Shown here: positions 7,213 to 64,000 of the stretch, in pieces | How the letters are laid out: every line of letters begins with the position of its first letter | How positions within the stretch are numbered: position 1 is the stretch's first letter | From: Schmidtea nova | Lineage: Eukaryota | Direction of reading: 5' to 3' | NCBI GenBank assembly: GCA_044892505.1 | Contig: CM097882.1 | Location: 543,430,001 to 543,494,000, forward strand | DNA: 64,000 bases | Program-made: the position numbers and the translations under genes | Notes under the pieces: generated by a model | What the model was told of the DNA's origin: nothing | Database searches by the model: none | The model's input: the letters and a program-made list of their open reading frames with translations, nothing else

Positions 7213-10200
7213 ATTTTTACCTGGATTTTTAAGTAGACATACCGTTCGATTTTCATAGTTGGAATTTTCTTGTTCATTCTTGTTCTCTTTATTTTCATCT
7301 TTGTTTTCATTGTTTTTATTCTCCCATTTCTCACTGTTTCCGTGATTTCCGTGATCACTGTTATCATCATTTTGCTGCTGTTCGTTGCTATCGTTGTCTT
7401 CATCGTCTGGTTTATCGTTTGATTTATCGTCATCGGGGTCGTTTAGATCACCCTCGGTTTCTTTTGAAATGTCGTCCTCGACATTTATATCCTTTATTAT
7501 TTCCCAATACAATTTGATAATTCTTTGTTCATCTAGTTTTATTTCACCCATTTTGCATTTCAATGTTCCAGCATCGTCGTGGAGATAACTCTTGTCTTTA
7601 TTTTTGATCTTTTTTCGCCATTCTTTAACCAATTCAAGTAGTTTTTCTCTCTTTGTTTTTATTTTCATTTCTTCGTTTGGCTTGTTTGTGAATCTGAAAT
7701 CTGGTCTTTTTAGTAGTGCTTTTGCTACTCTAGGTAATGTCCAATTTTCAATCAAAGCTCGCTCCATTAACACATTTTTATCATATTTGAACTCGTTGTT
7801 CACATTCATCAGTCCTTCTCCAGAGAGTGGATCTTTCCATTTTATCATTTTTGAAGCTACTATTTCATCTTTTCTTATCACTGCCCTTAATAATGGCTTT
7901 GGATTTAAACTCAGTATTTCGATGTCCTCTTGACTTGCTTTTGATAAAAGATACTTGGCTATTGTATAATAAGGTGATCTGTAGACATATGATAATACAG
8001 TTTCATTGTTGTTATCCCTTTCTTTGATACTTGACCCTGTTCTTAATAACTCCTCGATTAAGTCTTTGGACCCTCCTTCTTCTACCGCTAGCATTAATGG
8101 TGTTTGTCCTTTCCAATTTTTTATATTCGAGTGTTGTCCGCATCTTTCCATGAGTTTAATTATTTCCATAGCTCTTTTTCCTTCTCCCTTCCTCAAGGCT
8201 ACATTTAGTGGTGTTTCCTCATTAAAATCAGTCATTGTAAATAATATTGGCATCCGCTCCTTGATTATATCAATGAAATTTGGTGTTGCCTTTCCTCTGG
8301 CATACTCATTTATTATCCGATTTAGTCCGTTTATTATTTCGAATACGTGTTTGCCTTCTGTCCATTCCGGCATAATTTCTTTTGCTGTTCCTATTATCAG
8401 ATCCATTTCTTTTATATGTTCCATTCTCGCATCATCCGTTATTTTTTGCTTAATTTTTAATGTTGGACTTCTCATCTTTGGTGCAAAGAATGTTGCTCCA
8501 CAACATCCACATCCTTTACTCTTTCTAAGCATGCATATTTGTCTTGTCTGTGATCTGGTCATTATCCTCCTTTCCTCTGGTTCTTTTGTCGCAGTTTTTT
8601 CTACTCGTTTACATCTACACACGTTCACGTATATCGGTCGAACTAACGGATTGTTGACTAATTTTACCCGGATGTTATTTTCGCTAACAAATATGACTTC
8701 ATATGGTCCTTTTCCCGTTCTCTGTAATTTTTTCGCTGTTCCTGGGATGATTTCTGGTGTTTCGACTATCACCCAATCGCCTAGCTTGAACTGATGTTCG
8801 TGTACATTTCTCTTTTTGTCATGTAGTTCTTTGTAGCTCTCTTGATTGAATCGTATATTCATACCTGCAACTTTCCAAATTTCTTGCATTCGCTCCTTGA
8901 ATTTTGTTACGTAATCGTCGATTTCCATATATTGTGATATTGGTGGTTGATATTCAAGATCCATTGGCATGTTACATTCTCTGCCGTACATCAATTTAAA
9001 CGGACTCATTTTTGTTGCCGAGTGAATCGACATACGGTATGCCATTAGACATAGATTCACATATTCATCCCAATCCTTTTGGTGTTTACTGACATAATTT
9101 GACATCATCTCAATCAATATTCCGTTAAATCTCTCCGTTTGTCCATTTGTTTGGGGGTGATATGGTGAAGTTCTCAACTTAGCAATTCTGAAATAATTGG
9201 TAACTTCGTTGATGATCTCGCTCATAAAATTTGTTCCTTGATCGGTTAATATTTGTTTTGGTGTTCCATATCTACAACATATTTCTTCGACTAATATTTT
9301 GGCTATTGTTCTAGCTTTCTGATCTGGCATTGCAAATGCTTCTGGGAATTTTGTTAAGTAATCAGTTATTACTAATATATAAACATTTCCATGATTCGTT
9401 TCTGGTAATGGTCCTACTACATCCATTGCGATCATTGTCATAGGTTCTGGTGGAATTGGCATTGGTTTTAAAGGTGTTTTCATTTTACTGCCAGTGCTTT
9501 TTCGCGTTGCACATATTAAACAATTCCTAATCCATTCTTTCACATCTTCTCCAATATTTGGCCAAAAATACTTCTGTTTTAATCTCGCTTCCGTTTTCTT
9601 AGCTGACATATGTCCACCAAGTTTTCCATCGTGGTATTGCATCAAGATGTCTTTCCTTCTACCTTCTGGTAAACACATGAGTCTTTTTTCTCCGTCCATT
9701 GCTAATAACCAGCCTTTTTCGATTGTATATTTGTGCCTGTTTTTCTCCATATGCTCCTTTAGTTGGCTGTTATGATCAAAGATTTTCATATCATTCTTAT
9801 TCAAATATTCGATGATTAATTTTAGCTCTTCATCTTCATTTTGTTCTTGTTGTAGTTTAGTGAAATCAATATCTTCTGCGATTATCATACATATTCGCCT
9901 GACATCTTTATCCATTAGTTCCTCAAACATAAACCTTGACATGCAATCCGCATTTGCATTCGCTTTCCCTGACTTGAACTTTATATATGGCGAATATTCT
10001 TGCAGCTGCATTGCCCATCTCATTAATCTGCTTGACGCTTCTTTGTGCTGGCCTAACCATACTAACGGTTGATGATCTGTTGTGATGTATATTTCGTGAC
10101 CCCATAATAGATATTTGAAATGTTTAATCGCCTGAATGATTGCTAGCGCTTCTCTTTCCGTTACCGAGTAATTCTTCTCGTGTTTTCGAAAGGTTTTGCT

Positions 10201-13200
10201 GTAATATCCTATCACTCTTTCTCTCCCATCTTCATCCCATTGTCCTAGTACGGCTCCTGACGCGTATCCACTTGCGTCGGTTGCTAATAGAAATGGTTTT
10301 TTGAAATCTGGGTGTACTAATATTGGCGATGAAATTAACTTGTCTCGCAACTCTTCAAATGCATTTTGTTGCTCTCTTTCCCAGATAAATGGTGTATCTT
10401 TCTTGACTAGCTCTTGTACAGGCTTTGCAATTCCGGCATAGTTTTTAATAAATTTCCGATAATAACCACATAGTCCTAAAAATTCTTGTACTTGGGTTAT
10501 GGTTTTCGGTATAGGACAATTTTTTATCTTTTCGATATTTCTTGGGTCCGGCTCTTTTCCTTTAGCTGATACAATGTGACCCAAAAAGGTAACTTTTGGT
10601 TTTGCCCAATCACATTTTGATGGTTTCAATTTTAATTTCCATTGCCTTAATCGGATGAATACGTTTTGGATATCTTGTAAATGTTGTTCAAACGTACCCG
10701 AGTAAATCAATAAATCGTCAATATATACCATACATTGTTTTATCCCGTGAGTTACAAAATTCATGCATCTTTGAAATGACGCAGGTGCATTAGTTAAACC
10801 AAATGGCATCTTCTTGAACTGGTACAGATCTTTTCCGATGGTAAACGCTGTTTTCTCTCTGTCCTCTTCTTTCACTTTAATCTGCCAGTAACCGCTTTTC
10901 AAATCTAATGACGTGAAGTATGCTGCACCATGTAATGTTTGTAACATTTCGTTGATATCTGGTAACGGGTATGTATCTCTCTTGGTTACTGCGTTCAATT
11001 GTCGATAATCAATACAAAATCGTTGGGTACCATCTTTCTTTTTTACCATTACTACTGGAAATTGCCATGGTGAACAACTTGGTTCAATCACATCTGCGTC
11101 TAACATCTTTTGCACTTCGGCTTCGGCCACTGCTTTCTGCGCCTCTGCTAGTCGATATGGTCTCAATGTGATCGGTGTTTCGTCTGTTAGGGGAATAGTA
11201 TGTTGAGTTACATCACTCGTTCCCAAGTCTAAATCTGATGCTGCAAAGATGTCTTTAAATTCTAACAATACTGTTTTTAGTTTTTCTTTTTCAATATCGT
11301 TTAAAATTTCACTGTCGATTACCCATAACTCCTCCACTTTACTTTCATCCTCTTGAATTTTAGGTAATTCAATATTCATCATCGGGGTTAATTTTCCCAA
11401 TCTCTCATTTTCGTAAATGATTTTGTCTTCCTCATCGAAATTGGTGATGTTGATTGGTATTTCGTTTTCTTTATTGACGTTCACTATTTCTCTTGCCAAT
11501 GGTAACTCTTTTCTCATCTCAAAATTTTGATTTGGCTCAAATATCATTTCCCCGACTGCCGTGTCTTTTACTTTGGTGAAACATATCATTTGCGTTCTTC
11601 CTGGTACGACAATTTTCTTTGAACACCTTACTTCCGTTTTCATTGAACAGATTTGTCCGCTTTTATCTTTCAATCTCATCGTACTCAAATCGATAACAAT
11701 CTCCTTTAATAATTCTGGCATTAAGTCTGTACCAATGATACATGAGGCACCCAATTGTTTTATTACAGCTAAATAAGTAGACATCTCTACGTCTTTATAC
11801 TTAATATCTGACCATATTTTCCCAATAACTTTGACTGATTCTTTATTGCACGTGACCACATCCATTGGTGCTTCTTCAATGCAAGGCCATAACATGCCTG
11901 GTATCATGTTCATGTTTATTGCTGATATATTTGCACCGGTATCTATCATTGCATCCATTTCAACACCGTTGATTTCAATGGCAATAGTAAGGGTTGGTCC
12001 AGCTGATGTTCTCATCATGGCTATTGTCATTGTTTCTAGATTTTTCTCTTCGCTTTGTGGTCTGTTTAGTATTGTTGGGTCTGGTCTGTTTAGTATTGCC
12101 GGGTCAATCATTGCCCAATTTGGTTCGTAATGTGCTGGGTAGAAATTTGGCATTGGTAACATTCGTAGTCCAGCTCGTGTTTTTTCTCTCACTGTTCCTG
12201 GTCTTTGTGGGTTAGGGTATGTCATTGGTGGTAAATTTTGACCTTCCCATTGTTTTGATTTTTCTGCTTCCCATATTGGTGCGGTACCATTTGATCCGGA
12301 GTTCGTTCCTCCTTGATTTCCTTTGTCATCGTTATCACTATCGTCATCATCCGAATCTTTCCTTCGGTTATCCCACCATCTTTTCCATCCACTAGGTCTG
12401 GTTTCTTTATATTTCGTTCTCTCTGCTTCGTTTTTCATAATGAATCTAAATTTTCTACCGATCTCTTCGTCGGTTCCTTTCATCTTGGTCAATATTCCAA
12501 TTAACCTCTTTATTCTATGAATGTCTTTTGAATGCCCATGCAATACCATAGTTTTAGCCAAAAATGGTAGGAATCCAAGTGCCATTTTCCAATTGATTTG
12601 TCTCTCTCTTTTATAGATATCAAAACAAGCTAGCATCTGAGTTATAATAACTCTGACTATTTGAATAATTAGGATTATCCCTAATATTCCTGCCATCATC
12701 TGTCCAAATACTAAGAATCTTCCCCACATGGCTTTCATCATATTATTGGTTGCGTGTTTAAAATGTTCTGGTGACAACAATAACTCGTAGTTCGGACTTC
12801 CCACGAAATTTGTTCCACCGGTTATGGCTATAATATTTGATAATACTGCTTGTCTTTGGGTTGGAAATAGTATATGCTTTCTCGCTGCTTCTAAATCTGC
12901 ATCTCTGTACACTCCACTGTGTGAAATATCTATGGGTTTAAATTCTATTTCTGTTGTTAACTCTGTTAATCCAAATCGTTTAGGTGCTGATACAATTTGC
13001 CGATTTGGAAAAACTACCCATTTTGCATTTCCCATGTCATACATTGGTCCATACGCATTACTGCAATTGAACTGATGGGGTTCGTAATTTGGTGGATTTA
13101 TTATTCTCGTTACTGCTTGTACAAATCGACTTCTTCCCTTGTAGAATATTTCCAATTCGTTAGTACATCGGTTTTCTGGTATTCTTGGTCTTTCCGGTAG

Positions 13201-16200
13201 TCTTGCTATCTCTTTTTTGCATTTGTATGTATACATAACTTCTCCCACAATTCGACCGAAATGTCCTTCTTGCAGTGGTAATAGTGGTATTGCGTTATCT
13301 GGATTCGTTATAGCCATTGCTAATTTGGTTCTCAAAATTTCTCTGTTCAATATACAATCGTTTTGTATCAAATCATGATATACTTTCTCTGTGGTTGCCA
13401 TACCTCTATGGTATAAGAAATCCATTTTATTATTTGCGTACAAATACGTTTTAATGTCCACTGTATCTGGTTTTGGTGCTGCTTCAGCTATCACTGTTGT
13501 AGATAGGAAAATTCCTTTGTAATTCGTTTTTATTACTAATCTTCCGCATTTACTGACGGTTTCACCTTTGATGAATCTCATTCCCACTCCTGGATCTTTT
13601 GCTAAAATTGTTGTTGATATAATTGCTGTTGGTGTATTTACTAATTTAAGTTTTTCCGTCGTCTCTTTATGCTGGAATGTTCTTGTTCTTTTGAGCTGTT
13701 CCATTTCTTGTCTGGTTGAATCATCTTTGGGCTCGTCATAAACTTTTCCTAGTATTTCCTCGAATTCAGCTTCTTGTAATAACATTAGTCGACATTTATT
13801 CGCATCTGCCTTATAAATCAATGTTGATGCACCAGTATTACACGAGGTATGTTCTGCAGAACAACTTGGGAATTTTCTCATTGATAGCGTGTCTGGATCA
13901 AAATATCCCGGATATGTTTCTAGTTTCACTTGATACATCTCTATTACTACTACATTGCTGACCACTTTTCCTAATAGAGTGTATGCTCCTCCTTTACAAC
14001 TTCCGTCCGGTTTATTGACGTATCCGGCTGCATAAACTCTTGTTATTTTAATTGCTCCTGGTTGGGCAGCTATTATTATGTTTCCTGCTAACGATATCCG
14101 TTTTGAGGTAAACGCTTCATTGCACTTTTCGCTATCCAGTGATATTACGGTTGATTCCATTCCTGGTTCGATAATTGTTGAATATGAATATTGTCCACAG
14201 TAATACGCAAATAACTTTCTCGTAACCGTGCATTCTCTTATTTCTGCTTTGATGAGGTCTGATTCCTGATACACGTTGTAACTTATTTTATTCACAATTC
14301 TTTCCAATTTTTTCGGCGTGGCTTGTTTACAATCTTCCGTATCTTTTAATGAATATTTCTCGCTAAGCTCGATTTTGTCACAATCGTATACCACAAACGC
14401 TGTTGCTCCCTTTATGCACATCATCCAAATCAATATTGTGGTCAATATCGCATTCATACTCTTCCCATATGTTTTTTGATCGCGAAAATTCATTGATCCT
14501 TCGAATTCTGTTAATAATTCTCTCAACTTTACTTGCATGGTTTCTGTTTGATCTATTTTATCTACTGAGTTGATGAATGTTTTCCAACCTCCTTGTTTCA
14601 TTACATACGGCTCTATCAGTTTCTCAATGATTTCCGTTATTGTGAATATATGACCATTTGAACTGTATCTGGGTGTTCTCCGTTTGTACAAGACGATCAT
14701 ATTGTACATTAAATATGCCAAGCTTACTAAATATTTTGCTGGTTCGTTCGTGTTGTTTGTTAATTTTTCGATAATTTCTTTCATTTCTGCAGGATTTCTC
14801 AACGTCATTCGTACTTTTCCTTCGATGATTTTTGAGATTATTGGTTTAATCGTTATCCACAGTTGTTTGGCTTCTTGTTGGATGTGGTCTCTTTTTAACG
14901 CTCTTTTTATTTCTGGGTTTGCCAATGCAAGCATATCAGATACTAATTCATTTATCCATCGGATTCCTTGTTCGGTTATTGGTGTATTACCTTTCACTTG
15001 ATTTGCAACTGACACTAGTTTGCTTACTTTTAGTTGTAATTGTTCCGTCCTGCTTACTGATGTTGGTTTTTGATTTCTTTCTGTTTGATCTTTCGCCGGC
15101 CTCCCTCTTGGGCGTTTATCTATCATCGTTCCAGCTTCTCGTCTACTTAGCTGATTATTCGCGATTTCTCTCGATGTTGTCGCTCCTCTATCTGTGATCC
15201 AATTACTCCATTCGTCAGTTGTAGAATTTTCTCTTGCTCGTTTTTGTACTTTTTCTCGGTCGGTTTCATCATCGGTTGCTGTGATTTTTTGCCGTTTTAC
15301 CCAAGGAATTCTCTGGTCATCGGTTGTTGTTTCATTTTCTATGTTTGAGAATAAATCCCCTGAGTAAAATGCTGTTTCATCGTTTTCTCTATTCGCAATA
15401 TTTGTCAGTTCTTCTAATACGTCTTCATCAGTTGTTTCGACAATAATTTCACTTGCAGCTTCCGGTATTTCTGGTTCGTCTAAATTTCCGAATAATTTTC
15501 TCATTTGGGTTCGATTTCCCTCTTTTCTGATTAGTTCATTGCCTGCAATTTTAGAAACAGTTAAATGATTACTTGTTCCGATTCGTATCGGGGTTACACC
15601 AATTTCTATCTCATCATCGAGTGATCTTCCTTCGTACTGTAGATGAAATGGTAATTCAAATGGCAGTTTCTTTTTAATCTCTTTTATTTTCGTGGTTGCC
15701 AATACTTCCATTTCTTCCTTTCCAAAGTCTGGAAAATGGATTTTTAATCCACATTTTTGCGGTTCGTCACTTTCCCATTCCATTTGCCTCCATTTTCTTC
15801 TAAGCTCATCGAATTGTTCTGGATACCAAGTGTATACTCGTCCATATTCCTCGATTTCCTTCACGAGCATTGTCATGGTTAATCTATCCTTGCCATTCTC
15901 GAGAATCCATTTTGCTAATTCGACTACCGCTCTTCGTTGATTTTTGGCACCTTTTTCTAAAATATCGATTAACTGTCTACTTTTTTGGGCTTCAGTTCTC
16001 TCTAATACTTCAGGGTCCATCAGTTCATCCATATCTACAGGACGTAATCTCGAGGTTGTTTCTTGTTTTCTTAGCACGCTGATTCTGGGAATTGTCAGCT
16101 TTTCCCTTACGTCTTCCTCAATTTTGCATGAAACATAAATATCTCCTTCACTTTGATATCGAGATTTTTTATCTAATAGCAAGTGTTGCAAGATAAATTT

Positions 16201-19200
16201 TGGTGCTCCTGATGCTATATTTTCCTCTTTTTCTGGTTTATGATAGCAGCTGCAGAGCTTTTCTGGATAAATTTCTTCACTATGACCCTTCTCTGAATTG
16301 TAGGATGATCCTATAGACAATGTTACTTTTTGATCGAACGGCCATGTTAATTCCTCGTCATTGATCCCTTTACAGATGATATAAAATAATGACGTATGAG
16401 TTCCTTTACCAACTCCATCTCCGTTTGGATAAATTCTCATTTTTAATTTATATCCGCCTGGGTAAGTGTAAAATTGTGGGCTTGTCAATCGCGTTACTTC
16501 ACCCTCCTTTGCTGCTCTCACTTTATCTGCCCAATTTGAAATTCTCCATTTGAATGGTGCAAGATATTTCTCTTCGCATATGTTCTCGTCGACTTCCAAA
16601 TGTTTCCCAGTTATTTCTGATGGTTCGTAAATCTCATGGGTTTCCTCATATAACAGTTCCTCAGGTATTCGTTCTGGTTCACATGTTACCCATCTATCCT
16701 CCACATTTGGTTGTTCCCATCTGTATCGATTTTCTAATTCTATCCATGTCTTTATCCACGGCGTTGGTTTACAATCTCCATAATGAAGAGGTTTTATTTT
16801 CCCCTTTATTTCATTATCCGCTCTCCAAAAATTATATAAATCGATTATCTGGTCTAGTTTTCCGACCATTTTTCTTTTAAATCTCCTCACGTGACCATCG
16901 TCTTTCTCTGGTTCGTCCATTGCCCATATTTTAACTGTTTGACCGTCTTCCCAAATACCCAGTTTATATAAAGGTGTCTGATCATCTTTTTCTAATACAT
17001 GTTTATTGTACACGATTATTACATCTTCTATTAATCCGTCATCACTATTTTGTTTCACGTTATGCATAATTTTCTCATCGATTATCCGTATGAATTCGTC
17101 TACCGTACAATCTGGTTCTATTTCAATTGTTTGTTCGTCTCCACTTGGCAACGTTAGATTGACTTTTATCGTTTCCGCTCGATTCTTTGATCTCTGATAG
17201 CCGCCATATTGACTTATTAATTCGATTGCTCGTTTATCATCTAATCTCACTAACTCGGTATCTCGTACGAACTCTACAAATCTCTTCATTGATGCTGGTC
17301 TTCTTCTATTTATACTATCGATCATTTTCCTCGTCTGGTCTATTGCTTGTGTCGAAAGCATTAATCGATTTTCCCATATTGCTTGTTCGGCCAATTTTAA
17401 TAATTTTGGTCCGATTTCATAATCGTATCTATCTCCAATTCTTGTCAGTAGTTTCATCACCGTTTCTTCAATCGCGTTCTTCTTTAACGTTAAGATATTC
17501 AACTCGTTCGGCCATATCATAGCATCTACTAGATGTATTCCCTTTTTGATTCGCCAATTATTCAAATAAAGATAATCGTTTTTAAAACTGCTACCCATTT
17601 TCTCTTGCATCCAGTCATATAATGCGTTAGTATTTGGGTCGTTTATTTTTATTCCTAATACATCGATTTCGGGGTGGTGTACTTCTATCGTATACTCTTG
17701 AGTTGGCGTTTCTTTTAATTGCTTCTTGTATTCCGCTATTGAGTTGTTCCACGCTGCGGTGAATACTTGATTTTCTACCTGATTTGCTTGGGTGACTTCC
17801 TTCATAAACTTCTGATATACTTTTTCATCAATAAACTCCCGATTCTTCATGGCTAATTCAACCTTGCCTGTTACTTCTCCGATGATATTCCAATCGTCTT
17901 CACTTAGCAACGCGTTGCTTGATGTTTCGGTATCACTTTCTTCGCTAGCCAAAGGTGCTTTTAAATCGTTGTTTTCCTCACTTGACGGAAATAAGTCACC
18001 TCCTAAACTACTTACTTCGCTAATCTCGTCTTCTGGATCTGTTTGATCATCATTTCGCATTCTCATCATATTTATTTTATACACATTTTTAAGATCTCTT
18101 TCTTTTTCCTTTTGCGTTCTTGCTTGTGACCAATTCATTGTTGCGTCCCATCGTTTTCTTTTCAGTGCTTCTACTTCTTCATCTGTCAATGTGTTATTCG
18201 CTTTTCGAATTGAAGCTTCAATTTTCTGCAGTAGTGCTCGTTGAAGTCGGTTTCTGGTTATAATTTTTTGAGCTTTCTTTGTGATCTCTTCAACTTCTTC
18301 AGTGCTAGTTTTTTCCAATTTCTGATTTAACTTTCCTACTTCATTCGCGACAATAGTTGTTATTTTCTGTTCTATTTCCTTCGCTTTTATTTTCACTATT
18401 TCTTCCAATTCCTCACAGGTGTTGCAAACATTCCCACTGTCTCTTTTTTCTTTTCTTCTTTGATTATATTCTTGAATGAATATTTTCCTTTCTTCTTCGT
18501 TCATTGATTTTATTGAAACTTCGAATTCTCCATCTTTTTCATTAATCTCTACATCTGGTAACTCTGTTATCATTTCCTTCACTTTTTCTATTACATTCTT
18601 CTGCAATTTACTCATTTCCTCTGGATCTTCTTTATCTTCGCTTTTAACTCTCATCATGTTAATTTGCCTTGTGTTATTTCCTCGATTTTTCCATCTCTCT
18701 TCAATTTCCCGTGCTTCCTCCAACTGAAGTCTCTGCCATTCTGCTTGTTGTTTCGTTTGATTTTTGTTCGTCCTTAACTTGTGAGGCTCGGTGATTTGCA
18801 AAGCATTAATTCTTGGCTGTTGTGGTTGGCTGACTGTTGTTCGTTCGATTAATTCTCTCAGTTGTTCAAGTTCCTGCATCACATTGATTTGTGGTGTTTG
18901 ATTTTGGTTTTCGGTTCGCTGTGGTGCATTGACTTGGTTTGGGCATTCTCTCGCCATATGTCCAGGTTGTTGGCATTTGAAACAATTGGCGTTTCTTCTA
19001 AAATTTCCTCCATTATTGTTATTTCTTACGTAGTAATTTCCTGCACTAGCATTTACGGTTCTGCATACATTTTCTGTATGACCTTTTCTACCACAACTTT
19101 GACATGTTTTAGTGCTATAACATTCATGACTCAGATGTCCAGATTTTTGACAAATGTTACATATTTTGCTGGTGAATAAATTGTTATTCCCGTAATTATT

Positions 19201-20067
19201 CCTATTACTATACGCGTTGCTGTAAGTATTGTTATTTCTGTCTGTATTGTTTCGATTACGGTTGTCCATATTTGTATTCTGATTTCTCATTGGAGTTTTG
19301 AACATTTGTTGCGCTCTTGGTATAAATTGATTCATCATTGGAGTCGTGTTGTCTGGTTGATTACCTTCATTGGTCGTATTGGTTGTTGATTTTGTTGTTG
19401 GTTCCGCTGTCAAAACAGCAACTGTCAATGGTGGTTTTAAATACATTTCGCATCGATTCGCGATTGTCAGTGCTTCCTCCAACGTTTTTGGTGCCTGACA
19501 TCCGATATTTGCACGAATATCATCTCTTCTGAGTCCACTCAGAAATACTCCTACCAATCCTTCATCTTTTACTTTTTCCTCGCCGTAGGCATCTCTTGCC
19601 ATACGTTTTAATTCGCACGCGAACATCGCATTGGATTCGTTGGGTTTTTGTTTTCTGTGGAAGAAATCTAACATTTTCTGATTTTCTTCTTTCGCCACTC
19701 CAAAGGTTTTTTCTAAAAAGTCCTTGATTTCTTTCCATGTTCTCAATTTTTCATCATCTCGTCTTGCCTCTAAATAAACATCTTGTGCGCTTTCTTTTAA
19801 ATATAGCGGCATTCGTTCTCGGGTGGCTTCGTCTGACCAGCGACAGATCGTAATATAAACCTCAAATTCCTTTAGGAAGGTTTGTAATTTACTGATATTA
19901 CCATCAAATGGTTCTCCACGGAATTTTTCTTTAAAATCTCCAAGGTTGGCTGCTGACGTGGTACTCATTTTTATCCCTTCTTTCTCCTCGTCCGAGTTTA
20001 AACTTTCTGTGTAATTCTGGTTAATCTGTTCAATATAATTCCTTTCTACTTCCTCGCTGGTATCCAC
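5275..20067 (-). CDS. Giant Gag-accessory-Env-Pol-accessory polyprotein (4930 codons from GTG; frame open to 20268; true start probably upstream via splicing)
   Basis: Uninterrupted ORF with recognisable gag, MATH, glycoprotein, PR, RT, RH, INT, ankyrin, FN3-like and TM segments. The ORF-track start is GTG, and the first in-frame ATG is MSTTSAA about 33 codons later. Confidence 0.97.
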   Translation of the reverse strand: MDTSEEVERNYIEQINQNYTESLNSDEEKEGIKMSTTSAANLGDFKEKFRGEPFDGNISKLQTFLKEFEVYITICRWSDEATRERMPLYLKESAQDVYLEARRDDEKLRTWKEIKDFLEKTFGVAKEENQKMLDFFHRKQKPNESNAMFACELKRMARDAYGEEKVKDEGLVGVFLSGLRRDDIRANIGCQAPKTLEEALTIANRCEMYLKPPLTVAVLTAEPTTKSTTNTTNEGNQPDNTTPMMNQFIPRAQQMFKTPMRNQNTNMDNRNRNNTDRNNNTYSNAYSNRNNYGNNNLFTSKICNICQKSGHLSHECYSTKTCQSCGRKGHTENVCRTVNASAGNYYVRNNNNGGNFRRNANCFKCQQPGHMARECPNQVNAPQRTENQNQTPQINVMQELEQLRELIERTTVSQPQQPRINALQITEPHKLRTNKNQTKQQAEWQRLQLEEAREIEERWKNRGNNTRQINMMRVKSEDKEDPEEMSKLQKNVIEKVKEMITELPDVEINEKDGEFEVSIKSMNEEERKIFIQEYNQRRKEKRDSGNVCNTCEELEEIVKIKAKEIEQKITTIVANEVGKLNQKLEKTSTEEVEEITKKAQKIITRNRLQRALLQKIEASIRKANNTLTDEEVEALKRKRWDATMNWSQARTQKEKERDLKNVYKINMMRMRNDDQTDPEDEISEVSSLGGDLFPSSEENNDLKAPLASEESDTETSSNALLSEDDWNIIGEVTGKVELAMKNREFIDEKVYQKFMKEVTQANQVENQVFTAAWNNSIAEYKKQLKETPTQEYTIEVHHPEIDVLGIKINDPNTNALYDWMQEKMGSSFKNDYLYLNNWRIKKGIHLVDAMIWPNELNILTLKKNAIEETVMKLLTRIGDRYDYEIGPKLLKLAEQAIWENRLMLSTQAIDQTRKMIDSINRRRPASMKRFVEFVRDTELVRLDDKRAIELISQYGGYQRSKNRAETIKVNLTLPSGDEQTIEIEPDCTVDEFIRIIDEKIMHNVKQNSDDGLIEDVIIVYNKHVLEKDDQTPLYKLGIWEDGQTVKIWAMDEPEKDDGHVRRFKRKMVGKLDQIIDLYNFWRADNEIKGKIKPLHYGDCKPTPWIKTWIELENRYRWEQPNVEDRWVTCEPERIPEELLYEETHEIYEPSEITGKHLEVDENICEEKYLAPFKWRISNWADKVRAAKEGEVTRLTSPQFYTYPGGYKLKMRIYPNGDGVGKGTHTSLFYIICKGINDEELTWPFDQKVTLSIGSSYNSEKGHSEEIYPEKLCSCYHKPEKEENIASGAPKFILQHLLLDKKSRYQSEGDIYVSCKIEEDVREKLTIPRISVLRKQETTSRLRPVDMDELMDPEVLERTEAQKSRQLIDILEKGAKNQRRAVVELAKWILENGKDRLTMTMLVKEIEEYGRVYTWYPEQFDELRRKWRQMEWESDEPQKCGLKIHFPDFGKEEMEVLATTKIKEIKKKLPFELPFHLQYEGRSLDDEIEIGVTPIRIGTSNHLTVSKIAGNELIRKEGNRTQMRKLFGNLDEPEIPEAASEIIVETTDEDVLEELTNIANRENDETAFYSGDLFSNIENETTTDDQRIPWVKRQKITATDDETDREKVQKRARENSTTDEWSNWITDRGATTSREIANNQLSRREAGTMIDKRPRGRPAKDQTERNQKPTSVSRTEQLQLKVSKLVSVANQVKGNTPITEQGIRWINELVSDMLALANPEIKRALKRDHIQQEAKQLWITIKPIISKIIEGKVRMTLRNPAEMKEIIEKLTNNTNEPAKYLVSLAYLMYNMIVLYKRRTPRYSSNGHIFTITEIIEKLIEPYVMKQGGWKTFINSVDKIDQTETMQVKLRELLTEFEGSMNFRDQKTYGKSMNAILTTILIWMMCIKGATAFVVYDCDKIELSEKYSLKDTEDCKQATPKKLERIVNKISYNVYQESDLIKAEIRECTVTRKLFAYYCGQYSYSTIIEPGMESTVISLDSEKCNEAFTSKRISLAGNIIIAAQPGAIKITRVYAAGYVNKPDGSCKGGAYTLLGKVVSNVVVIEMYQVKLETYPGYFDPDTLSMRKFPSCSAEHTSCNTGASTLIYKADANKCRLMLLQEAEFEEILGKVYDEPKDDSTRQEMEQLKRTRTFQHKETTEKLKLVNTPTAIISTTILAKDPGVGMRFIKGETVSKCGRLVIKTNYKGIFLSTTVIAEAAPKPDTVDIKTYLYANNKMDFLYHRGMATTEKVYHDLIQNDCILNREILRTKLAMAITNPDNAIPLLPLQEGHFGRIVGEVMYTYKCKKEIARLPERPRIPENRCTNELEIFYKGRSRFVQAVTRIINPPNYEPHQFNCSNAYGPMYDMGNAKWVVFPNRQIVSAPKRFGLTELTTEIEFKPIDISHSGVYRDADLEAARKHILFPTQRQAVLSNIIAITGGTNFVGSPNYELLLSPEHFKHATNNMMKAMWGRFLVFGQMMAGILGIILIIQIVRVIITQMLACFDIYKRERQINWKMALGFLPFLAKTMVLHGHSKDIHRIKRLIGILTKMKGTDEEIGRKFRFIMKNEAERTKYKETRPSGWKRWWDNRRKDSDDDDSDNDDKGNQGGTNSGSNGTAPIWEAEKSKQWEGQNLPPMTYPNPQRPGTVREKTRAGLRMLPMPNFYPAHYEPNWAMIDPAILNRPDPTILNRPQSEEKNLETMTIAMMRTSAGPTLTIAIEINGVEMDAMIDTGANISAINMNMIPGMLWPCIEEAPMDVVTCNKESVKVIGKIWSDIKYKDVEMSTYLAVIKQLGASCIIGTDLMPELLKEIVIDLSTMRLKDKSGQICSMKTEVRCSKKIVVPGRTQMICFTKVKDTAVGEMIFEPNQNFEMRKELPLAREIVNVNKENEIPINITNFDEEDKIIYENERLGKLTPMMNIELPKIQEDESKVEELWVIDSEILNDIEKEKLKTVLLEFKDIFAASDLDLGTSDVTQHTIPLTDETPITLRPYRLAEAQKAVAEAEVQKMLDADVIEPSCSPWQFPVVMVKKKDGTQRFCIDYRQLNAVTKRDTYPLPDINEMLQTLHGAAYFTSLDLKSGYWQIKVKEEDREKTAFTIGKDLYQFKKMPFGLTNAPASFQRCMNFVTHGIKQCMVYIDDLLIYSGTFEQHLQDIQNVFIRLRQWKLKLKPSKCDWAKPKVTFLGHIVSAKGKEPDPRNIEKIKNCPIPKTITQVQEFLGLCGYYRKFIKNYAGIAKPVQELVKKDTPFIWEREQQNAFEELRDKLISSPILVHPDFKKPFLLATDASGYASGAVLGQWDEDGRERVIGYYSKTFRKHEKNYSVTEREALAIIQAIKHFKYLLWGHEIYITTDHQPLVWLGQHKEASSRLMRWAMQLQEYSPYIKFKSGKANANADCMSRFMFEELMDKDVRRICMIIAEDIDFTKLQQEQNEDEELKLIIEYLNKNDMKIFDHNSQLKEHMEKNRHKYTIEKGWLLAMDGEKRLMCLPEGRRKDILMQYHDGKLGGHMSAKKTEARLKQKYFWPNIGEDVKEWIRNCLICATRKSTGSKMKTPLKPMPIPPEPMTMIAMDVVGPLPETNHGNVYILVITDYLTKFPEAFAMPDQKARTIAKILVEEICCRYGTPKQILTDQGTNFMSEIINEVTNYFRIAKLRTSPYHPQTNGQTERFNGILIEMMSNYVSKHQKDWDEYVNLCLMAYRMSIHSATKMSPFKLMYGRECNMPMDLEYQPPISQYMEIDDYVTKFKERMQEIWKVAGMNIRFNQESYKELHDKKRNVHEHQFKLGDWVIVETPEIIPGTAKKLQRTGKGPYEVIFVSENNIRVKLVNNPLVRPIYVNVCRCKRVEKTATKEPEERRIMTRSQTRQICMLRKSKGCGCCGATFFAPKMRSPTLKIKQKITDDARMEHIKEMDLIIGTAKEIMPEWTEGKHVFEIINGLNRIINEYARGKATPNFIDIIKERMPILFTMTDFNEETPLNVALRKGEGKRAMEIIKLMERCGQHSNIKNWKGQTPLMLAVEEGGSKDLIEELLRTGSSIKERDNNNETVLSYVYRSPYYTIAKYLLSKASQEDIEILSLNPKPLLRAVIRKDEIVASKMIKWKDPLSGEGLMNVNNEFKYDKNVLMERALIENWTLPRVAKALLKRPDFRFTNKPNEEMKIKTKREKLLELVKEWRKKIKNKDKSYLHDDAGTLKCKMGEIKLDEQRIIKLYWEIIKDINVEDDISKETEGDLNDPDDDKSNDKPDDEDNDSNEQQQNDDNSDHGNHGNSEKWENKNNENKDENKENKNEQENSNYENRTVCLLKNPGKNTIIMTILLTMLNWVKAIDYIFDQRRAEARIVTDTENIWITNIKGELIIKICTVAIRKNGVSDHQKCIRTALAIGEEQKVEKLESGTTYIICIYRTNQIRAICAAKEMITKMGNERNRLEKIQSVTKTPIDENEEENEEEEQDKKVMMTIQNKTTIEVKEKEMMVTNNVREPITQICWIKTIHMQNKDRQLSCKFQMTGQNGKFRIPGLKPGTSYTICIRRIWTQKLCLEKPTKEIITTTTTTSGTTTYYPLIVETKSTEIILINNHEEVIKKVCWRKVDMNSGLDNPSKCYQQSVKGKEQMIIKELESKTTYLICIWRTFVPICQEHTTTEQIITSTESGREPDEKAIRLPRATITVTEKPTIVKGYRKEIEISITPNQIQKETEKFFQNDIIKVKNVQGHLIARICIYEVKLQQEKCKSVSNKEEKSFIEEEEYYVAGWERGTKYRVCLYKKLNEDPTCQFISKLPRRVDDTREFSIEDQILTTTKPTVYNKYISEEEAERIIQGGRPIKIVQTTTESPTTISAAVEESKIAIKMIWITAGIIGAILVLILTQHAKITGRCKRKTKRKRQWPSIEKFEYGISLEEVKTEDEYEICNGSEFNGMWMQGLPPTINPSIIEADIYRTTNELYGGMRNLHFGPQETLV
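7845..8235 (-). other. Ankyrin repeats (about 4) C-terminal to integrase
   Basis: FNEETPLNVALRKG, WKGQTPLMLAVEEG...LIEELLRTGS.I..RDNNNETVLSY and KPLLRAV match the TPLH.A / L.LL..GA ankyrin pattern. Confidence 0.88.
8640..9635 (-). other. Integrase (HHCC, DDE core, GPY/F)
   Basis: H...GGH...C..C, MDVVGPLP, TDQGTNF, YHPQTNGQTERFN, GKGPYEV. Confidence 0.97.
9935..10300 (-). other. RNase H (Ty3/Gypsy type)
   Basis: LATDASG..GAVLGQ...IGYYSK.....EKNYS.TEREALAII...TDHQPL...NANADCMSR. Confidence 0.96.
10550..11150 (-). other. Reverse transcriptase
   Basis: SPWQFPVVMVKKKDG..RFCIDYRQLN...LDLKSGYWQI...KTAF...MPFGLTNAPASFQR...YIDD (10714-10725). Confidence 0.98.
11690..12000 (-). other. Aspartic protease
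   Basis: IEINGVEMDAMIDTGANISAI (DTG at 11935-11943) and downstream CIIGTD. Confidence 0.95.
12500..14457 (-). other. env: Envelope-like fusion glycoprotein, chuvirus/Monjiviricetes type, embedded between Gag and protease
   Basis: Signal-like MNAILTTILIWMMCIKGATA followed by FVVYDC...SL.D..DC. Cys-rich ectodomain with GEVMYTYKC...C..EL.I...G..RF...VTR...C...Y....W, and a C-terminal TM (12643-12718). Confidence 0.8.
14570..15030 (-). other. Bcl-2-like helical domain
   Basis: About 150 aa amphipathic helical region ending YVMKQGGWKTF (14575-14607), matching the BH2 consensus WI..QGGW..F. BH1 is divergent, with no NWGR. Confidence 0.65.
15555..15747 (-). other. Second ubiquitin-like domain (divergent)
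   Basis: LKIHFPDFGKEEMEVLATTKIKEIKKK...HLQYEGRSLDDEIEIGVTPIRIGTSNHLTV matches the L.y.Gr.L.D...I ubiquitin motif. Confidence 0.6.
16114..16560 (-). other. TRAF-type MATH (TRAF-C) domain within polyprotein
   Basis: FKWRI...SPQFYTYPGGYKLKMRIYPNGDGVGKGTHTSLF...G.ND..LTWPFDQKVTL...P..E.NIASGAPKF is a near-complete TRAF-C signature. Confidence 0.95.
16921..17172 (-). other. Ubiquitin-like domain within polyprotein
   Basis: TIKVNLTLPSGDEQTIEIEPDCTVDEFIRII...IIVYNKHVLEKDDQTPLYKLGIWEDGQTVKI follows the beta-grasp ubiquitin pattern. Confidence 0.75.
18940..19165 (-). other. Three CCHC zinc knuckles (nucleocapsid)
   Basis: CNICQKSGHLSHEC, CQSCGRKGHTENVC and CFKCQQPGHMAREC all fit CX2CX4HX4C. Confidence 0.95.
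19430..19930 (-). other. gag: Gag capsid-like domain
   Basis: PFDGNISKLQTFLKEFE...W...LYLKESAQDVY...W..IK..L...F...QKPNESNAMF..EL...GL...EAL..A resembles the retrotransposon Gag capsid pattern. Confidence 0.85.
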
Positions 20068-20944
20068 AGATAAACTTTCCGATGTTGCAAACTCTGTTTG
20101 TTCGGATGAAGGCCTTCTGTTGTGTGTTCTTGAAGATTTCGCAGTTTCTTTCTCTTTGTTTTCTAGTAGACTTAGCTCTCTGTCTAAATTTTGATCTTTG
20201 TCTTGATTTTTACGCTTTAATAGCCGCTCTGCGATACTCCCAGTATTCCCTGCTTTGTCAATTGTTGATTATTTCTCTCTTACGGTTAGATTCTCTTTTA
20301 TATTTTTCTTCTTTTACTTCTTTCCTCTTCAATGAGTCTTCTTTTTCTTCTTTTTCTTCCTTTATTCCTGTTTTCAAAACTGATTCACTTGAATTTGATG
20401 GTTTTGGTTTGATGTTATCTAAAAATATAAAAAAATGGATCCATTTATAATTAATTTTGTTCATCATTTTAGGCTTCTTCCTCTTTCCCACCGTTCCGAC
20501 ATCGTCGCTACTCACCCCCCATAATTTAGGTGGATTTTAATTTATCTATACCTCGTAATAATTATCTATGTAGGGTCGTACGGTTTACCTGGTACCTTCA
20601 TCCATAATAATAATGATAATAATAATAATAATACTAATTATAATAATAATTTGCACAAAACTTTTCTTAACATAACTCTCATACTTCGTTTCGAAATCAT
20701 GATTTTCACAAATACTTTATTTATTTATTGTCGTCGTTCTCTTTCAGATTTTCTGATGTTTCCAGCTAGCTTTTTATAATATTTCTTAATGGATGTTACA
20801 ATTCTTACGCTGTCATTCTATCCTATTTTTCCTAGATGTACCTTCTTTAATCTCTTTTTACTAACTTCTATTTTCTCAAAATGCATTTTATTTCTTCTAC
20901 GAGCTCTCAAAATTTCTCACATGCATGAATTTCTATATATTTTT

Positions 20945-21517: not shown

Positions 21518-22488
21518 CGGCCGTCTTCAATTCATTCTCTTTATACTATTTAATCACTCATTTTCCTATTCTCAATAAATTCGCTGTTACTGACTGTTTT
21601 TCTCAGATTGTTCTACTACTTCTCAATTATGAATTCATCAGGGTAAAATCGTCGAAATTCACTTTCTACTCTTTCGACTTTCTAAAATCTGCAGCCTCTT
21701 TCTCTTTATTAATGTTACTGTCTCCTACCTCAGTGTACCAATCATGCCTTGGTAAACTGATGTATAAGACGAACATTACGGGTTTGACCCTTTCTCCTAA
21801 GTTAAAATCGTAAAATAATCGCGTCGACTCGTTCTGCAAATTGTGATGATCAGTCACAAACAAAATTTATCAACATTTGCGATGGATCCTATTCTACATT
21901 TTCTCCTTAAGGTGATCAGGTTTTTCCCAGTTTGTTGTTTGCTAATTTTTCAACAACAGAAATATTGGCGTACTATCTTTTGATAGCTCTGTTTAAACTT
22001 GGCGTACTATCTTTTGATAGCTCAGTTATGAATTTGTGGACTATTTTCTCGTTTCTACTCAGATACTCATTTCTCGCTTAATTTAAGAGGATTCTCCCTA
22101 TAAAATCAACTTCTATAACTCTACTTATTGCTTGTCCTAATACATACATTTTTATATTTATGATCAGTATGATAATCAATATAATAATGATAATAAAGGA
22201 GATTTATAGTAATGAAATTCGGAATCAATGTAATAATGATGATGAGGAAGATTTATAATAATAATAATAAAGGAAATTCAAAAAGAAAAGAAAAGTAACT
22301 TGTCACAAATTCCCATTTTCCTAATGTTTGATTTTTCGGCATTAGCCGTTACTTGTTATGTTTTTTACACGATTCTCAGTCATTAATTACCTAGTGTTCT
22401 GTGTTTATTTAATTTTTACGACGATTTGGATTACTGGATGATCGACGAAGTTCAACATGACCAAAACGTTTATTTCGAACGACATTCT

Positions 22489-22815
22489 TTATGAACAAAA
22501 TACTACGATTTTGTCATCAGTTGTCTGTTTGCAGATTACACATCTCTTTATTTCTCTAGAGCACGGCTGGCAATAATACAAATGCCCACACGGCATGAAT
22601 AAAATGTTCGCTTCTCTTTGTCGACAAATATAACATCCTTCGAACAAATCGATCTGTTGATTTATCGATCTCTCTAGCTTGTCCATAATTTTATCGATTT
22701 TACCAATCCATTCTTGTATTTTTAAATTAAAACTCGGATTATTCGGTCGCAATCGTCGTAATTCATAAATTGTCTCTAACGAAATATTGTTTGTTGTTCC
22801 TACAATTCCTTTCAT
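22489..22815 (-). CDS. Small IAP-like C3HC4 RING finger protein (108 aa from first ATG) in element leader
   Basis: CYICRQREANILFMPCGHLYYCQPCSREIKRCVICKQTTDDKIVVFCS* fits the IAP/MGRN-type RING with an aromatic C-terminal tail. The ORF-track start at 22848 is GTG; the first ATG is at 22815. Confidence 0.85.
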   Translation of the reverse strand: MKGIVGTTNNISLETIYELRRLRPNNPSFNLKIQEWIGKIDKIMDKLERSINQQIDLFEGCYICRQREANILFMPCGHLYYCQPCSREIKRCVICKQTTDDKIVVFCS

Positions 22816-22974
22816 TTCATTTTCTCGTTCGAATCTCTCGCTCAACACTCAATTCACCGTAACATATGCTCAATCGCTTCCATCTAAAATATTCATGATG
22901 ATCGGTGTTTATAACTTTTTGAATTAACCATTCATTATGATTTGAACGAAAAATAAATAATAAATTATATTTTT

Positions 22975-24133: not shown

Positions 24134-27100
24134 AGTAAAATCAAACACAATTTTCCGCTGTTTCTGTCAAAATTTTATTTAACAGTTTGTTGATGTTTTA
24201 TGAAAACTTTCATTAAGTCTCGCGCGAACTCGTTTTAGTTGCTTTTCGATTTTTTCAAGCAAAACAAACTCAAATCCCGGCTGAGCCCCCAAATTTTTAT
24301 ATGGTGGGTCGTTGATCGTCAATATGACCTTGACGTTGCTATGGCCCTCATCAACAACCCAACACACAAAAATATTGAAATTTACCACCTTGTTACCCGT
24401 CACTATGTAACGTTGGTACTGTAACAAGTGGGTGGGTATTCGCAATCAGTGAGCGTCGTCAATACGAAACTATGATTGACCGAATATCTCCTGGGTCCAA
24501 GGGCTACCGATAGAAGGTTTCTTGCCCATTTTGTCCCCTTCTTCGACGATTTATCTTTAAGCATTCAACAAAATTTTATCGGCAATTCAACATTAATATT
24601 CTACCTAACTATAAATTCGTGATTACATCCAAATAAATCATTCCGAGCATCAAAACACTAATAAAACATTAAATTTTACTTATATTATAATTTATGTTAA
24701 TTATTAATGAAAGTATTCTAAAATAAAATTTTTAATTTACATTTGCATTTACGATAAAATCAAGACTTTAATTCTTAATTTGTGAATATTTATAACTAAT
24801 TTACTTTTATAACTAATTGATATTCCGAAACAATTTGTTTCAATCCATCATTCAATCCACAACAAGCCGAACACCATTCAAATTCACCAAGCATAATTTT
24901 CTACGCAAATCATTTCTCTCTATTGGCAAAACAAGTAAATTTTTAAATTAATTGATATGCTGAAATTAATTCTTTTCATAGCCCTCAATTTCAAAAACAC
25001 AGGTGGAAACTCAGTTCGGAAATCTTAGCAACTACGTCTTATCACTTTAATCTATTTGACAGATTTGAATATCTAACAATTATCCAAACCATTAATCCAA
25101 TCGACAAATCCCAATTAATCAACAATCCGCGACAATGTCTAATGATCATGACTCCAATAAACCAGCGTTGTGGTCATCCATGTCAGTGACAAATACTGCT
25201 TAACAATATCTTTTCTTAGTGCTGAATTTAATATATGTACTTTATTTGCATTTTTACTTTTTATGTAAAATGGTTTTTATCATACAAAAGGGTAACAATT
25301 AATTATTTTAATTAAAATACTTAAAGTTTTGCTAGACGAAATATAATAATCTTTGAATTTCATGTGAAAATAAATTGATTGTCACTAGATGAAATATAAT
25401 ATTATTTTAAAATAATATACCAAATTTTACTTTAAAAGGCACCATAAATTCACAATAATACAATTTTTTAACTTAAACATTATTGATTTTAAAGGCAATC
25501 TTGAAAACTTCCTAATATCCGTTACAAATAAAAAGGTTCCACACCAAATGTTTGTGGTGGGTGAATGGATGAAACCTTGGCATTGTCCTTCTGGAGGCAT
25601 GCATGTCTACGCATGATGTGGGATACTATCATTTCGAGCTTGATTGTTGATACACTTTTACAGGTTTATTATGAATTTTTCATTGATAGTGCAGGAGATT
25701 GTATGTGATTATATGTGTCTGTATGTTGACTTGAATGTTGGATGAGAATAAATAATTTATTGGTGGATGAGGTGTAGTATGATGACTGTGTGTTCTATTG
25801 TTACTGTTGGGTTTGTGTGTGATTGTATGATGAGCGATTTAAAAACAATTGAGTGCTTGTGAGTGTGGTTGGACGTATAATTCTAACTAGCATGTCTGTG
25901 TGAAATTTTTGGGGTAGCTGGTTGGTGTGTATGTGATTGTTGAATGTTATTGAGTGATACGGTGTAGGTGTGTCTATTGTATTTTATACGTATGTTGTTT
26001 GTATATTAATATGGATGATGCTATTGAGTGAAAAGGGTGTAAATCTTTGCAATGGGTGATGTATTAGTATTTTAAGATGTCGTGGGGGGTTATATTATAA
26101 ATTAAATAAATTGTATAAAATATTTCTAAAGTTAAAATAAAAATAAAAAAAAAATTTTTAAAGTTAAACTAATGGTAATGATTTTTAGATCAAGATAATA
26201 ATAATAATTTTTAGATCGAAATAATAATAATATTTCTCATAATGCTTTTTTACAAATTTTTAAGTTTTAAAATTTCTACGAAAAACAATTAACGATAAGG
26301 TTTATAATTTTTTATAATGTCGATTTGAATTTACAATTTTTATACTTTAAGAATAGAATAAAAAAAAAATTTCTATAAAATCTCGAATTCAGATTTTTTA
26401 TAAAATAATAAAATTTATTAATATAATAATAAAATTTCAATCTAAATTTTCATGGGGTTTAATATAACTTTTGATTTTCAAATTCTCGGGAATTTTACGA
26501 AATGATAAAATCCTTTTATATATTAATAATATTAGGAACCAAATTTGGTTTACAATTTTTCCATATAAAATCTTTTCAACATAATAAAAAGCAAATTTCT
26601 ATTTCTGATCCAAATGAAATGATAATAAATTTTTATCCATAAATTCAAGATCTAAATAAGCATTTAATCTAAAAAAACTTTACCTGCTAAATAAAAATAA
26701 AATAAAAATAAGTTATAAATTTTTCAACGAGTATTTTTAACCTCAAGCAAAGTAAATTTCGGTTTTGTTGAGCATGAATTTCCCAACTAAGTGTGCGCGA
26801 ACCTTTCGGGACACTTCACTCAGGAATTTCAGGCTCTCGAAAAACAAGATTCACAGGAAAACTTATTTAGACCATAATGAGCTTTAATTCAGATTAAATC
26901 AATACTTGTTTCACAATTTGTTTCACTTCATGAGCATTATTCTAGACTTGAGCATTATTTCGAACCATTTTCTTTTCATCATCAGCATCCATTTTTCTTG
27001 CATTTTCTTATGAGATGAACGTTGTTGAGAGTGCGAAGGTGAAGGCGAGTACGAGTCGATTTTTTAATCAATAATATTTCCTATTTTAGATTTCAAGACA

Positions 27101-28558
27101 TGAGTTAGAAATTATTATGTTGTATTACGAAATTGCTTATGTAGATAATAAAAATATGATACTCTATTATAATACAAATCATTAGTATAACAAAACCTTG
27201 CTCTTGGCCAAACCGCGATTCCCCAGTTGGGATGACGCGAATTTGGATGTATGAGCCTCACCTTAAAGTGGAAATATGGGCTGGCCGATTACCAATCAGA
27301 CAACGATCCACCCAGGCTACTAACAGATCCGCACAACCAAGGCTGGACGGATCGTCAGAAGATATGGGAGAAAAAAAAAAAAAAAAATTTTTATTTATTT
27401 TCATAATTTAATTTAGTTATCGAATTTCAATGAGATCTTTCCTGAATTATTTTGGGAATTTGTGGCTCGTGATAATGATTATGACAACAAAAAAGAAACT
27501 AAGCTATTAATCATGAAAATACTTTAATAATATAAAATTGACCATAATAAATAAAATGACAAATAACATATTAAATAAAAAAGGGGGGAATGGGATGATC
27601 GTCAGGCATGACGGACGACCATTCCAATCCCCAATGAGAATAACCAAAATCAAACAAATCCTTACGTTTGTCCAATTAACTTCTGCTACGATTTCTTTCA
27701 AACAAATTAATTTTTTCTTAGAAATTTGGAACGATTTTTCCACAAATTTTCTTGGAATCAACTTCTGATAGTAACTTCTTGGAATCAAATTCTGATATTA
27801 GCTTTTCTCTTCTCTTCTTGAAATCAAATTAGCTTTTCTTCTTGCAATCAAATTCTCAAGTTGGATTTCACAAAAGTTATTTTTCGCAATTTCTCCGTAA
27901 ATTAATCAAGAAAAATTTTCCACCAAATTCTGAAATCTGCCATTTTGATGGCGGTATATATACCATCAAATTTTTTCTATCTCCGGTAGTGCAATAAAAC
28001 AAATTGTTCTAGAAGTTTCTCTTAATTTTTTCTAAATTAATTCTAATGATTTTCCGAAAATTAATTCCATATTTTTGTATAATAATTTTTTATAAACTAT
28101 AAATAATTTATTTTAATTAAAAATTTTTATGTTTGAATCGAAATTTGTTCGATTTGATTTAATTTATGATTTTCGATCCATATTAATTCTTTCTATTGTT
28201 ATATGTGAAATTTTGTGATAAATTCACAATTTTCCTCTAGAATTGTGTTAATTTTTCTGCACTGAGGATTTTTATGACAAAATTCTGTTCTTTATGGGCA
28301 CTTTCAATGGGTTTTCCGCCTATTCTAGCTTCCAAACATTCTGCTTTTAATTTCTCTCGAGATTTCCGTGGAAATATTTACAAATTCGCAGTTAGCGCGT
28401 ACTCTACCGGTTGATGTATTTTGATTCCACTTCACCTTCTGATGCTTTCCGCTTAATTGTTAGATTTTTAATGGCAGCTAAGGCTAAAATGAAATCTTGC
28501 GCGCTCTCTACCTATTGGGTTATCGTTTTATTAAAACAAATTGCGTTTTGGCCCAACA
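24134..28558 (-). repeat. 5' LTR (at least 4.2-4.4 kb; inner boundary probably in or near N-gap 23977-24133)
   Basis: 24387-28558 is a copy of 1-4171 with terminal TG on the element strand at 28558. 24134-24386 is assumed to be LTR but cannot be compared within the window. Confidence 0.9.
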
Positions 28559-51068: not shown

Positions 51069-51183
51069 ATTATCATTATGGGAATTATTGATATTAATAT
51101 TAAAAAAAGATCAAAGGTGAAACAAAAAGATAACTATAATAATATTAATTATGATGATAATAAAAATAAAAATAAAAATAAAA

Positions 51184-63966: not shown

Positions 63967-64000
63967 ATACAATTATGAAAATTATTGATATAAATCAAAA

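Follow-up and report, generated by a model that had tools for sequence, protein, structure and literature searches.

Giant LTR retroelements of the Burro/GYPSM1 type encode gag, MATH, an in-frame fusion-glycoprotein env, PR-RT-RH-IN and ankyrin in a single polyprotein of ~5,000 aa, and they have multi-kb LTRs (PMC6431247). The cargo published for Burro comprises MATH, BIR, BCL2-like, ubiquitin-like and ankyrin regions and accessory ORFs, and an element of Dugesia tigrina has been described as having accessory ORFs upstream (PMC6431247). The RING+BIR region of Burro1 (B-IAP; Lee et al. 2026, Dev Cell), a captured IAP region, is reported to protect planarian stem cells, as cited in PMC13465017. 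Among wheat LTR elements, the RLG_Cereba/RLG_Quinta and Wilma/Sabrina/WHAM systems contain partners that share the LTR and PBS, lack RT and IN and keep selected ORFs, and RLG_Quinta has been proposed to contribute protein back to its autonomous element (PMC11302176, PMC9744471). In planarians, TRAF genes are reported to have expanded (PMC6109357), and mRNAs for traf, E3 ligases and ankyrin to be turned over through piRNAs (PMC6824462).

Here we analyse a 64,000-nt stretch of Schmidtea nova DNA (the window), in which an element of this kind has a RING ORF in its leader. The flagged ORF is a real gene but a shortened copy, a remnant of a 160-aa helix-plus-RING gene. It shares with B-IAP, which has a reported role in stem-cell survival (PMC13465017), an element-borne, IAP-class RING, and differs in having no BIR and in its leader position. 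RING+BIR cargo in Burro and helper/partner LTR pairs in wheat are known already, whereas the BIR-less RING gene and the helper/partner split of this family appear to be new. We found no description of a BIR-less leader RING or of a cargo-bearing partner in the literature, which is weak evidence since Lee 2026, Grohme 2018 and Jurka 2007 may cover either; the excerpts of PMC8532177 and PMC11410931 contain nothing on a BIR-less leader RING ORF.

Results

The element in the window

The features of the window element are as follows.

24302..28558, minus strand: 5' LTR, 4257 bp, TG...CA, with a 4-bp target-site duplication at 28559-28562
24274..24291, minus strand: PBS-like 18-mer, 10 nt inside the LTR end, which may resemble a tRNA-Pro primer site
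22854..22885, minus strand: acceptor-like YAG with the family start codon (22883) directly after it, a context found in 27/27 intact long copies
22809..22849, minus strand: two deletion junctions relative to the majority form, 34 nt near 22848 and 54 nt near 22810
22489..22815, minus strand: 108-aa remnant ORF (long helix, C3HC4 RING, VFCS*) starting at a downstream ATG, a truncated form of the 160-aa family gene
22531..22635, minus strand: RING domain with eight zinc ligands, by profile match and ligand check
22500-22498, minus strand: terminal aromatic Phe of the RING, spaced from the last Cys as in cIAP2
21700..21990, minus strand: second leader frame, decayed here; 1/10 other copies checked has it open for up to 103 aa
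20904..21517, no strand assigned: 24/26-bp tandem array in the leader, differing in length among copies
5275..20268, minus strand: 4997-aa Burro-type polyprotein frame, first Met at 19968, with gag, CCHC, MATH, fusion-glycoprotein env, PR, RT, RH, IN, ankyrin and weak fn3, and no BIR
16554-16120, minus strand: MATH of the polyprotein (Pfam)
1..4171, minus strand: 3' LTR, running 85 bp past the window start, with one indel relative to the 5' LTR

A single indel separates the two LTRs and a 4-bp duplication flanks the pair, so this is a very young insertion. By its layout the element fits a Burro/GYPSM1-like one, with the difference that it has no BIR; the excerpt of PMC6431247 names no separate BIR-less RING ORF and no TRAF/IAP partner. 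No BIR was found in the window element with Pfam or by comparison with a 399-aa IAP, an ORF of a partner element in which a BIR is present. A candidate degenerate BIR after the integrase was rejected, having no Pfam match and no likeness to the 399-aa IAP. The assignment of a Bcl-2-like region comes from PMC6431247, and this region gave no match to a Bcl-2 protein in Pfam or in a PDB sequence search.

Several other sequences were observed in and around the element. The second leader frame (21700-21990, minus strand) is open for ~94-103 aa in some partner copies. At 20258-20536 (minus strand) lies a charged 92-aa frame that has an acceptor-like site and stops just at the start of the polyprotein frame, which in 15/15 gag-bearing copies compared is closed upstream there. 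Polyprotein residues ~4300-4900 (window 5500-7400) contain repeated fn3-like modules (weak Pfam E of 0.004) followed by a C-terminal hydrophobic segment, which suggests a possible surface protein at the end of pol. Mutually related, MITE-like palindromic repeats of ~190-220 bp lie at 45362-45552, 50911-51102 and 63774-63995.

The RING gene and its full-length form

The minus-strand frame of the flagged ORF is open from 22848 to 22489 and gives 108 aa from the ATG at 22815 to the terminal VFCS*. Its RING matches PF13920 in Pfam above the cut-off (E 2e-13) and has 8/8 C3HC4 ligands, and a RING pattern occurred in 0/2000 shuffles of the leader. The ORF sits between the 5' LTR (28558-24302) and gag, on the strand of the 4997-aa frame, 2.2 kb from the start of that frame and 2.5 kb from its first Met. 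A hint from paired matches that the RING lies inside the LTR was discarded, as the LTR ends at 24302. These observations agree with the initial annotation, which described a complete C3HC4 RING with a terminal VFCS* on the same strand as gag and ~2.3 kb upstream of the predicted polyprotein start, preceded by a helical segment and lacking BIRs; Pfam found no BIR in the 108-aa form, and helices N-terminal of the RING are predicted in a model of the 160-aa form. The annotation of the ORF as complete and stand-alone did not hold. Measured against the majority form, the window copy is short of two segments of 34 nt and 54 nt, with about a third of the protein (the N-terminal helices) gone, and because of these two deletions the family start codon at 22883 is cut off from the RING frame and opens only nine codons.

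The majority form of the gene encodes 160 aa and starts directly after the acceptor-like YAG. Exact junction patterns gave 1,720 copies with the first deleted segment (long form) versus 548 copies without it (short form). A search of 1.84 billion proteins found P0006, a 160-aa homologue that aligns gaplessly over 158 residues at 38% identity. P0155 is a near-twin of P0006, P0156 is another gapless 160-aa homologue (36%), and P0071 (176 aa) is more distant. P0006, P0155 and P0156 cover both segments deleted in the window copy, at 36-38% identity, and are not from the scored copies of this genome because the best identity to P0006 among its 150 scored places is 40%.

With Pfam, no BIR, UBA or CARD was found in the RING gene (108- and 160-aa forms, and P0006 for BIR). 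A search of longer proteins gave convincing matches of IAPs over the RING part alone, and 13 loci in a metagenome scan matched in the RING region only. The N-terminal helical part had no recognisable match in Pfam or a fold search and no usable match in an atlas search, and a word-based protein search with a 145-aa variant returned no match. An apparent N-terminal homology to the 606-aa IAP P0159 was based on one short shared word and was taken as chance. The flagged gene and the 399-aa IAP are 31% identical over 93 aa, and the middle helices may bear a weak UBA-like likeness to that IAP. A structure model of the 160-aa form, modest at pLDDT 67, places five helices before the RING, and in this model the two deletions take out the first helix and parts of the second and third. 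Elsewhere in the genome, three tandem 160-aa RING ORFs with 1,243-bp spacing were observed at G000:C1:371971001-371973960.

Both deleted segments end at the same YAG/G word. The 34-nt segment begins with GT in most long copies, and the 54-nt segment begins with AT, a GT variant of it having 0 matches. Judged from these borders, the deletions could have arisen in two ways that fit equally well, as cryptic introns that became fixed through reverse transcription or by deletion at microhomologies.

Intactness and selection

We compared two samples of copies. Of 1,918 exact matches to the RING core, Sample A took the first 40 by position, with 36 long and 4 short copies; its search pattern does not recover a variant frequent in short copies and therefore under-counts them. 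Sample B, the first 40 of the 548 short copies, lacked both segments in 40/40. The long form was intact in 27/36 copies and the short form still open in 7/40 (Fisher p 6e-7). Of the 40 short copies, 12 share one stop and 7 another, which implies that broken versions were amplified.

The full-length 160-aa gene is under purifying selection. Its pN/pS is 0.22 over 24 distinct intact copies, and the codon-model omega of the distinct intact long copies is 0.435 (p 1.3e-6 versus 1), compared with controls of 0.12 for gag (12 distinct copies) and 0.25 for the partner IAP (11 copies, picked for alignment from 30 as ORFs of 399 aa, so that 11/30 is not an intact fraction). We note that sampling was confined to the first part of a single contig, that tandem duplicates among the copies and recombination between them make the samples less than independent, and that this recombination also weakens tree-based omega values.

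The non-autonomous partner

Many long copies belong to a non-autonomous partner element (~18-22 kb plus LTR) in which as many as nine ORFs lie on the same strand and whose LTR, PBS and leader are common with the gag-bearing helper of the window type (examples are loci L124, L130-L131, L150, L155 with L163-L171, and L176-L182). The shared cis sequences suggest that the partner is mobilised by such a helper. Gag-CA, env, RT, RH, IN, the Bcl-2-like region and the polyprotein MATH are absent in 9/9 partner copies read, and the protease is kept. The LTR pairs are 99.76-100% identical in 8/8 copies with both LTRs read.

By Pfam domains, the cargo of the partner includes a 492-aa TRAF (RING, zinc finger and MATH) and the 399-aa BIR-RING IAP, together with two coiled-coil-like ORFs and two ORFs with hydrophobic ends. 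The ORF after the RING gene (~1,045 aa) has a weak ubiquitin-like match, protease and ankyrin, and its identity to parts of the helper polyprotein is 39-64%. The composition of the cassette is modular: TRAF and IAP are missing in some copies, and order or content varies. A full TRAF stands beside the IAP in 6/9 partner copies read and is missing in 3/9. The RING gene and the 399-aa IAP travel together in many partner copies, and the RING gene occurs without the IAP in 3/9. A BIR search of the genome gave 1,295 candidates, and among 150 scored, many lie 8-9.5 kb downstream of a RING match. The 399-aa ORF is likely the counterpart of B-IAP, which is known here by its description (PMC13465017). 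Compared with the wheat pairs (PMC11302176, PMC9744471), the flatworm partner keeps no gag-CA, and the ORFs that it retains encode host-signalling cargo (RING, TRAF, IAP, coiled-coil and predicted membrane proteins).

Two types of ORF were noted individually in these copies. At L134:8692-9999 and L160:8679-10000, a 484-aa ORF takes the place of TRAF/IAP, with a signal-peptide-like start, a cysteine-rich stretch that looks EGF-like by eye and no significant Pfam match. At L167:3230-4120 and 4222-5046 (minus strand), ORFs of 297 and 275 aa have hydrophobic N- and C-terminal segments around coiled-coil-like stretches, again with no significant Pfam match.

Distribution of the two forms

The two forms differ in the elements that carry them. 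Among 36 long copies, 32 are in partner-type elements, 1 is in a gag-type element and 3 have neither context. The 40 short copies precede gag (18), an internally deleted helper derivative (12), a partner (9) or nothing (1). Form and element type are thus associated (long, 32 partner and 1 gag; short, 30 helper-derived and 9 partner; p 4e-11). The helper derivative is a third class, with a period of ~14 kb, in which the leader is joined to polyprotein residue ~3619; it was found at the following loci.

L188, L196, L200, L202, L204-L206, L212, L213, L218-L220: helper-derivative class

Sample C, the first 59 of 249 gag-bearing copies, contained 9 intact 160-aa ORFs, 7 open 108-aa ORFs, 41 broken ORFs and 2 copies without an ORF. 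Most of the gag-bearing copies sampled (43/59) therefore have no open RING ORF, an outcome that the initial annotation had named in advance as counting against its reading and that holds for this class of element. The helper/partner split is not absolute, as the 160-aa ORF is kept in 9/59. With 249 gag matches for the helper and an estimate of roughly 1,500-1,700 copies for the partner, the partner is the more numerous element.

The RING class

The RINGs of cIAP2, cIAP1 and XIAP are the best PDB matches by sequence, and cIAP2, IDOL and cIAP1, in this order, are the best by fold, none with E below 0.001. The same RING class among the PDB matches includes IDOL, MUL1, MDM2 and MIB1, and an IAP origin is therefore not proven. 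The terminal aromatic residue of IAP RINGs has a role in dimerisation. The C3HC4 pattern with a terminal aromatic 11 residues after the last Cys is present in 27/27 intact long copies and in four outside homologues. In these ligands and this spacing the gene resembles the cIAP1/cIAP2/XIAP and IDOL/MUL1/MDM2 RINGs, from which it differs in having no BIR, UBA or CARD, an unmatched helical part and a replaced Pro before the last Cys pair. The gene thus has the sequence features of a C-terminal dimerising RING and is not an IAP in the sense of a protein with at least one BIR. The cIAP RINGs must dimerise and bind E2 (PMC3172091, PMC6349121), and the positions aligned to the cIAP2 dimer/E2-binding residues V568, L585 and I590 (PMC3172091) are hydrophobic in the copies of this genome.

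Discussion

We believe, with a probability of about 0.6, that the flagged ORF is a twice-deleted 108-aa remnant of a selected 160-aa helix-plus-RING accessory gene, carried mostly by a non-autonomous partner and likely encoding a dimerising IAP-class ubiquitin ligase that would support host-cell survival. The two forms, their counts, the helper/partner distribution, the omega below 1 and the partner gene content are direct observations, from which we infer the rest. In 9/10 cargo ORFs the first ATG is preceded by an acceptor-like YAG no more than 21 nt away (42% background, p 0.003), and because of this the 160-aa protein would be expressed from a spliced subgenomic RNA. Its RING would dimerise via the terminal aromatic residue and bind E2 as in cIAP, and its N-terminal helices, a large part of which is missing in the window copy, would bind a substrate or partner. 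The protein may act jointly with the TRAF and BIR-RING IAP of the partner. Selection may be relaxed in gag-bearing helpers, with the several-fold more numerous partner copies supplying the product in trans. Judged from sequence features, the likely function is that of a spliced, dimerising RING E3, or a RING partner, in survival signalling.

MDMX works with MDM2 as a RING heterodimer partner. By analogy, the 160-aa protein could be a weak or inactive ligase that pairs with, or inhibits, the BIR-RING IAP of the partner or host IAPs, a reading that we consider improbable though worth keeping in view. Directly after the last Cys, five family members of 160-176 aa have K, D, D, D and I (K in the copy of this genome, D or I in the outside homologues) and the 399-aa IAP has R, with the terminal aromatic kept in all, and the Pro before the last Cys is replaced in all family members compared; these changes may mean weak E3 activity. 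The co-travel of both RING genes in many partner copies also agrees with such pairing. However, the positions of cIAP2 V568, L585 and I590 are hydrophobic here, and some partner copies have the RING gene without the IAP.

The initial annotation proposed that the RING ORF is a partner E3 of the polyprotein MATH/UBL/Bcl-2 region, forming one anti-death cassette in the window element. The two are in the same element and on the same strand, the MATH is confirmed by Pfam, some open RING ORF is present in 16/59 gag-bearing copies, and the product could act in trans on the helper polyprotein. A fixed cassette is not supported because an open RING ORF is missing in 43/59 of the gag/MATH-bearing elements, and intact copies are found mostly in partner elements that lack the Bcl-2-like region and the polyprotein MATH. 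The cIAP-TRAF precedent for this pairing involves other parts: the cIAP1-TRAF2 contact runs via BIR1 and the TRAF2 coiled coil (PMC3172091), which neither a BIR-less RING nor a lone MATH has, whereas the 399-aa IAP and full TRAF of the partner have parts of the BIR and coiled-coil kinds. We therefore regard this pairing as unlikely; what stands of the proposal is a selected IAP-class RING in an element family loaded with death-pathway cargo.

It is still less probable that the 108-aa form works as a short isoform from a start codon of its own, for instance as a substrate-less RING that modulates the long form. Three findings speak against a dead remnant: the downstream ATG is present in 33/40 short copies, the omega of the short form is 0.55 over 18 gap-free copies (p 0.011 versus 1, after removal of 4 stop columns), and variants shared within the short versus the long form showed no significant difference (p 0.15). 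In the window, moreover, the short form is intact within a very young element. However, 33/40 short copies are not intact, with stops or frameshifts common to many, and in the window a short ORF from the old start lies upstream. The residual omega below 1 may reflect variation taken from long copies by recombination. A ligase aimed at a host restriction or silencing factor, unrelated to cell death, is similarly doubtful: the gene has no BIR and its N-terminal part no recognisable match, and BIR-less RING proteins of the same class are found in many viruses, but the adjacent cargo is TRAF and IAP, and the RING+BIR region of Burro1 reportedly shields stem cells from caspase-mediated death (PMC13465017).

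Beyond the remnant reading of the flagged ORF, we tentatively suggest a two-part giant retroelement with divided labour, in which a gag/env/pol helper is shedding its survival gene and a helper-dependent partner carries the row of spliced RING ligase, TRAF and IAP. The dependence would be mutual: the partner would rely on the helper for movement, and the helper on the partner for host-cell survival. The reported TRAF expansion (PMC6109357) and piRNA-degraded traf, E3-ligase and ankyrin mRNAs (PMC6824462) would fit element-borne cargo, which could explain part of both.

The flagged copy itself offers an ordinary lesson, that of a remnant. The family carries a second RING gene, which lacks a BIR and whose age has allowed divergence to 36-38% identity without gaps, and most of the intact survival cargo has moved into a defective partner that outnumbers its helper. 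This opens two questions to testing: whether host-modulating proteins supplied by a non-autonomous element can pay for its mobilisation, and whether retroelement cargo accounts for some of the 'expanded' planarian TRAF and E3 genes.
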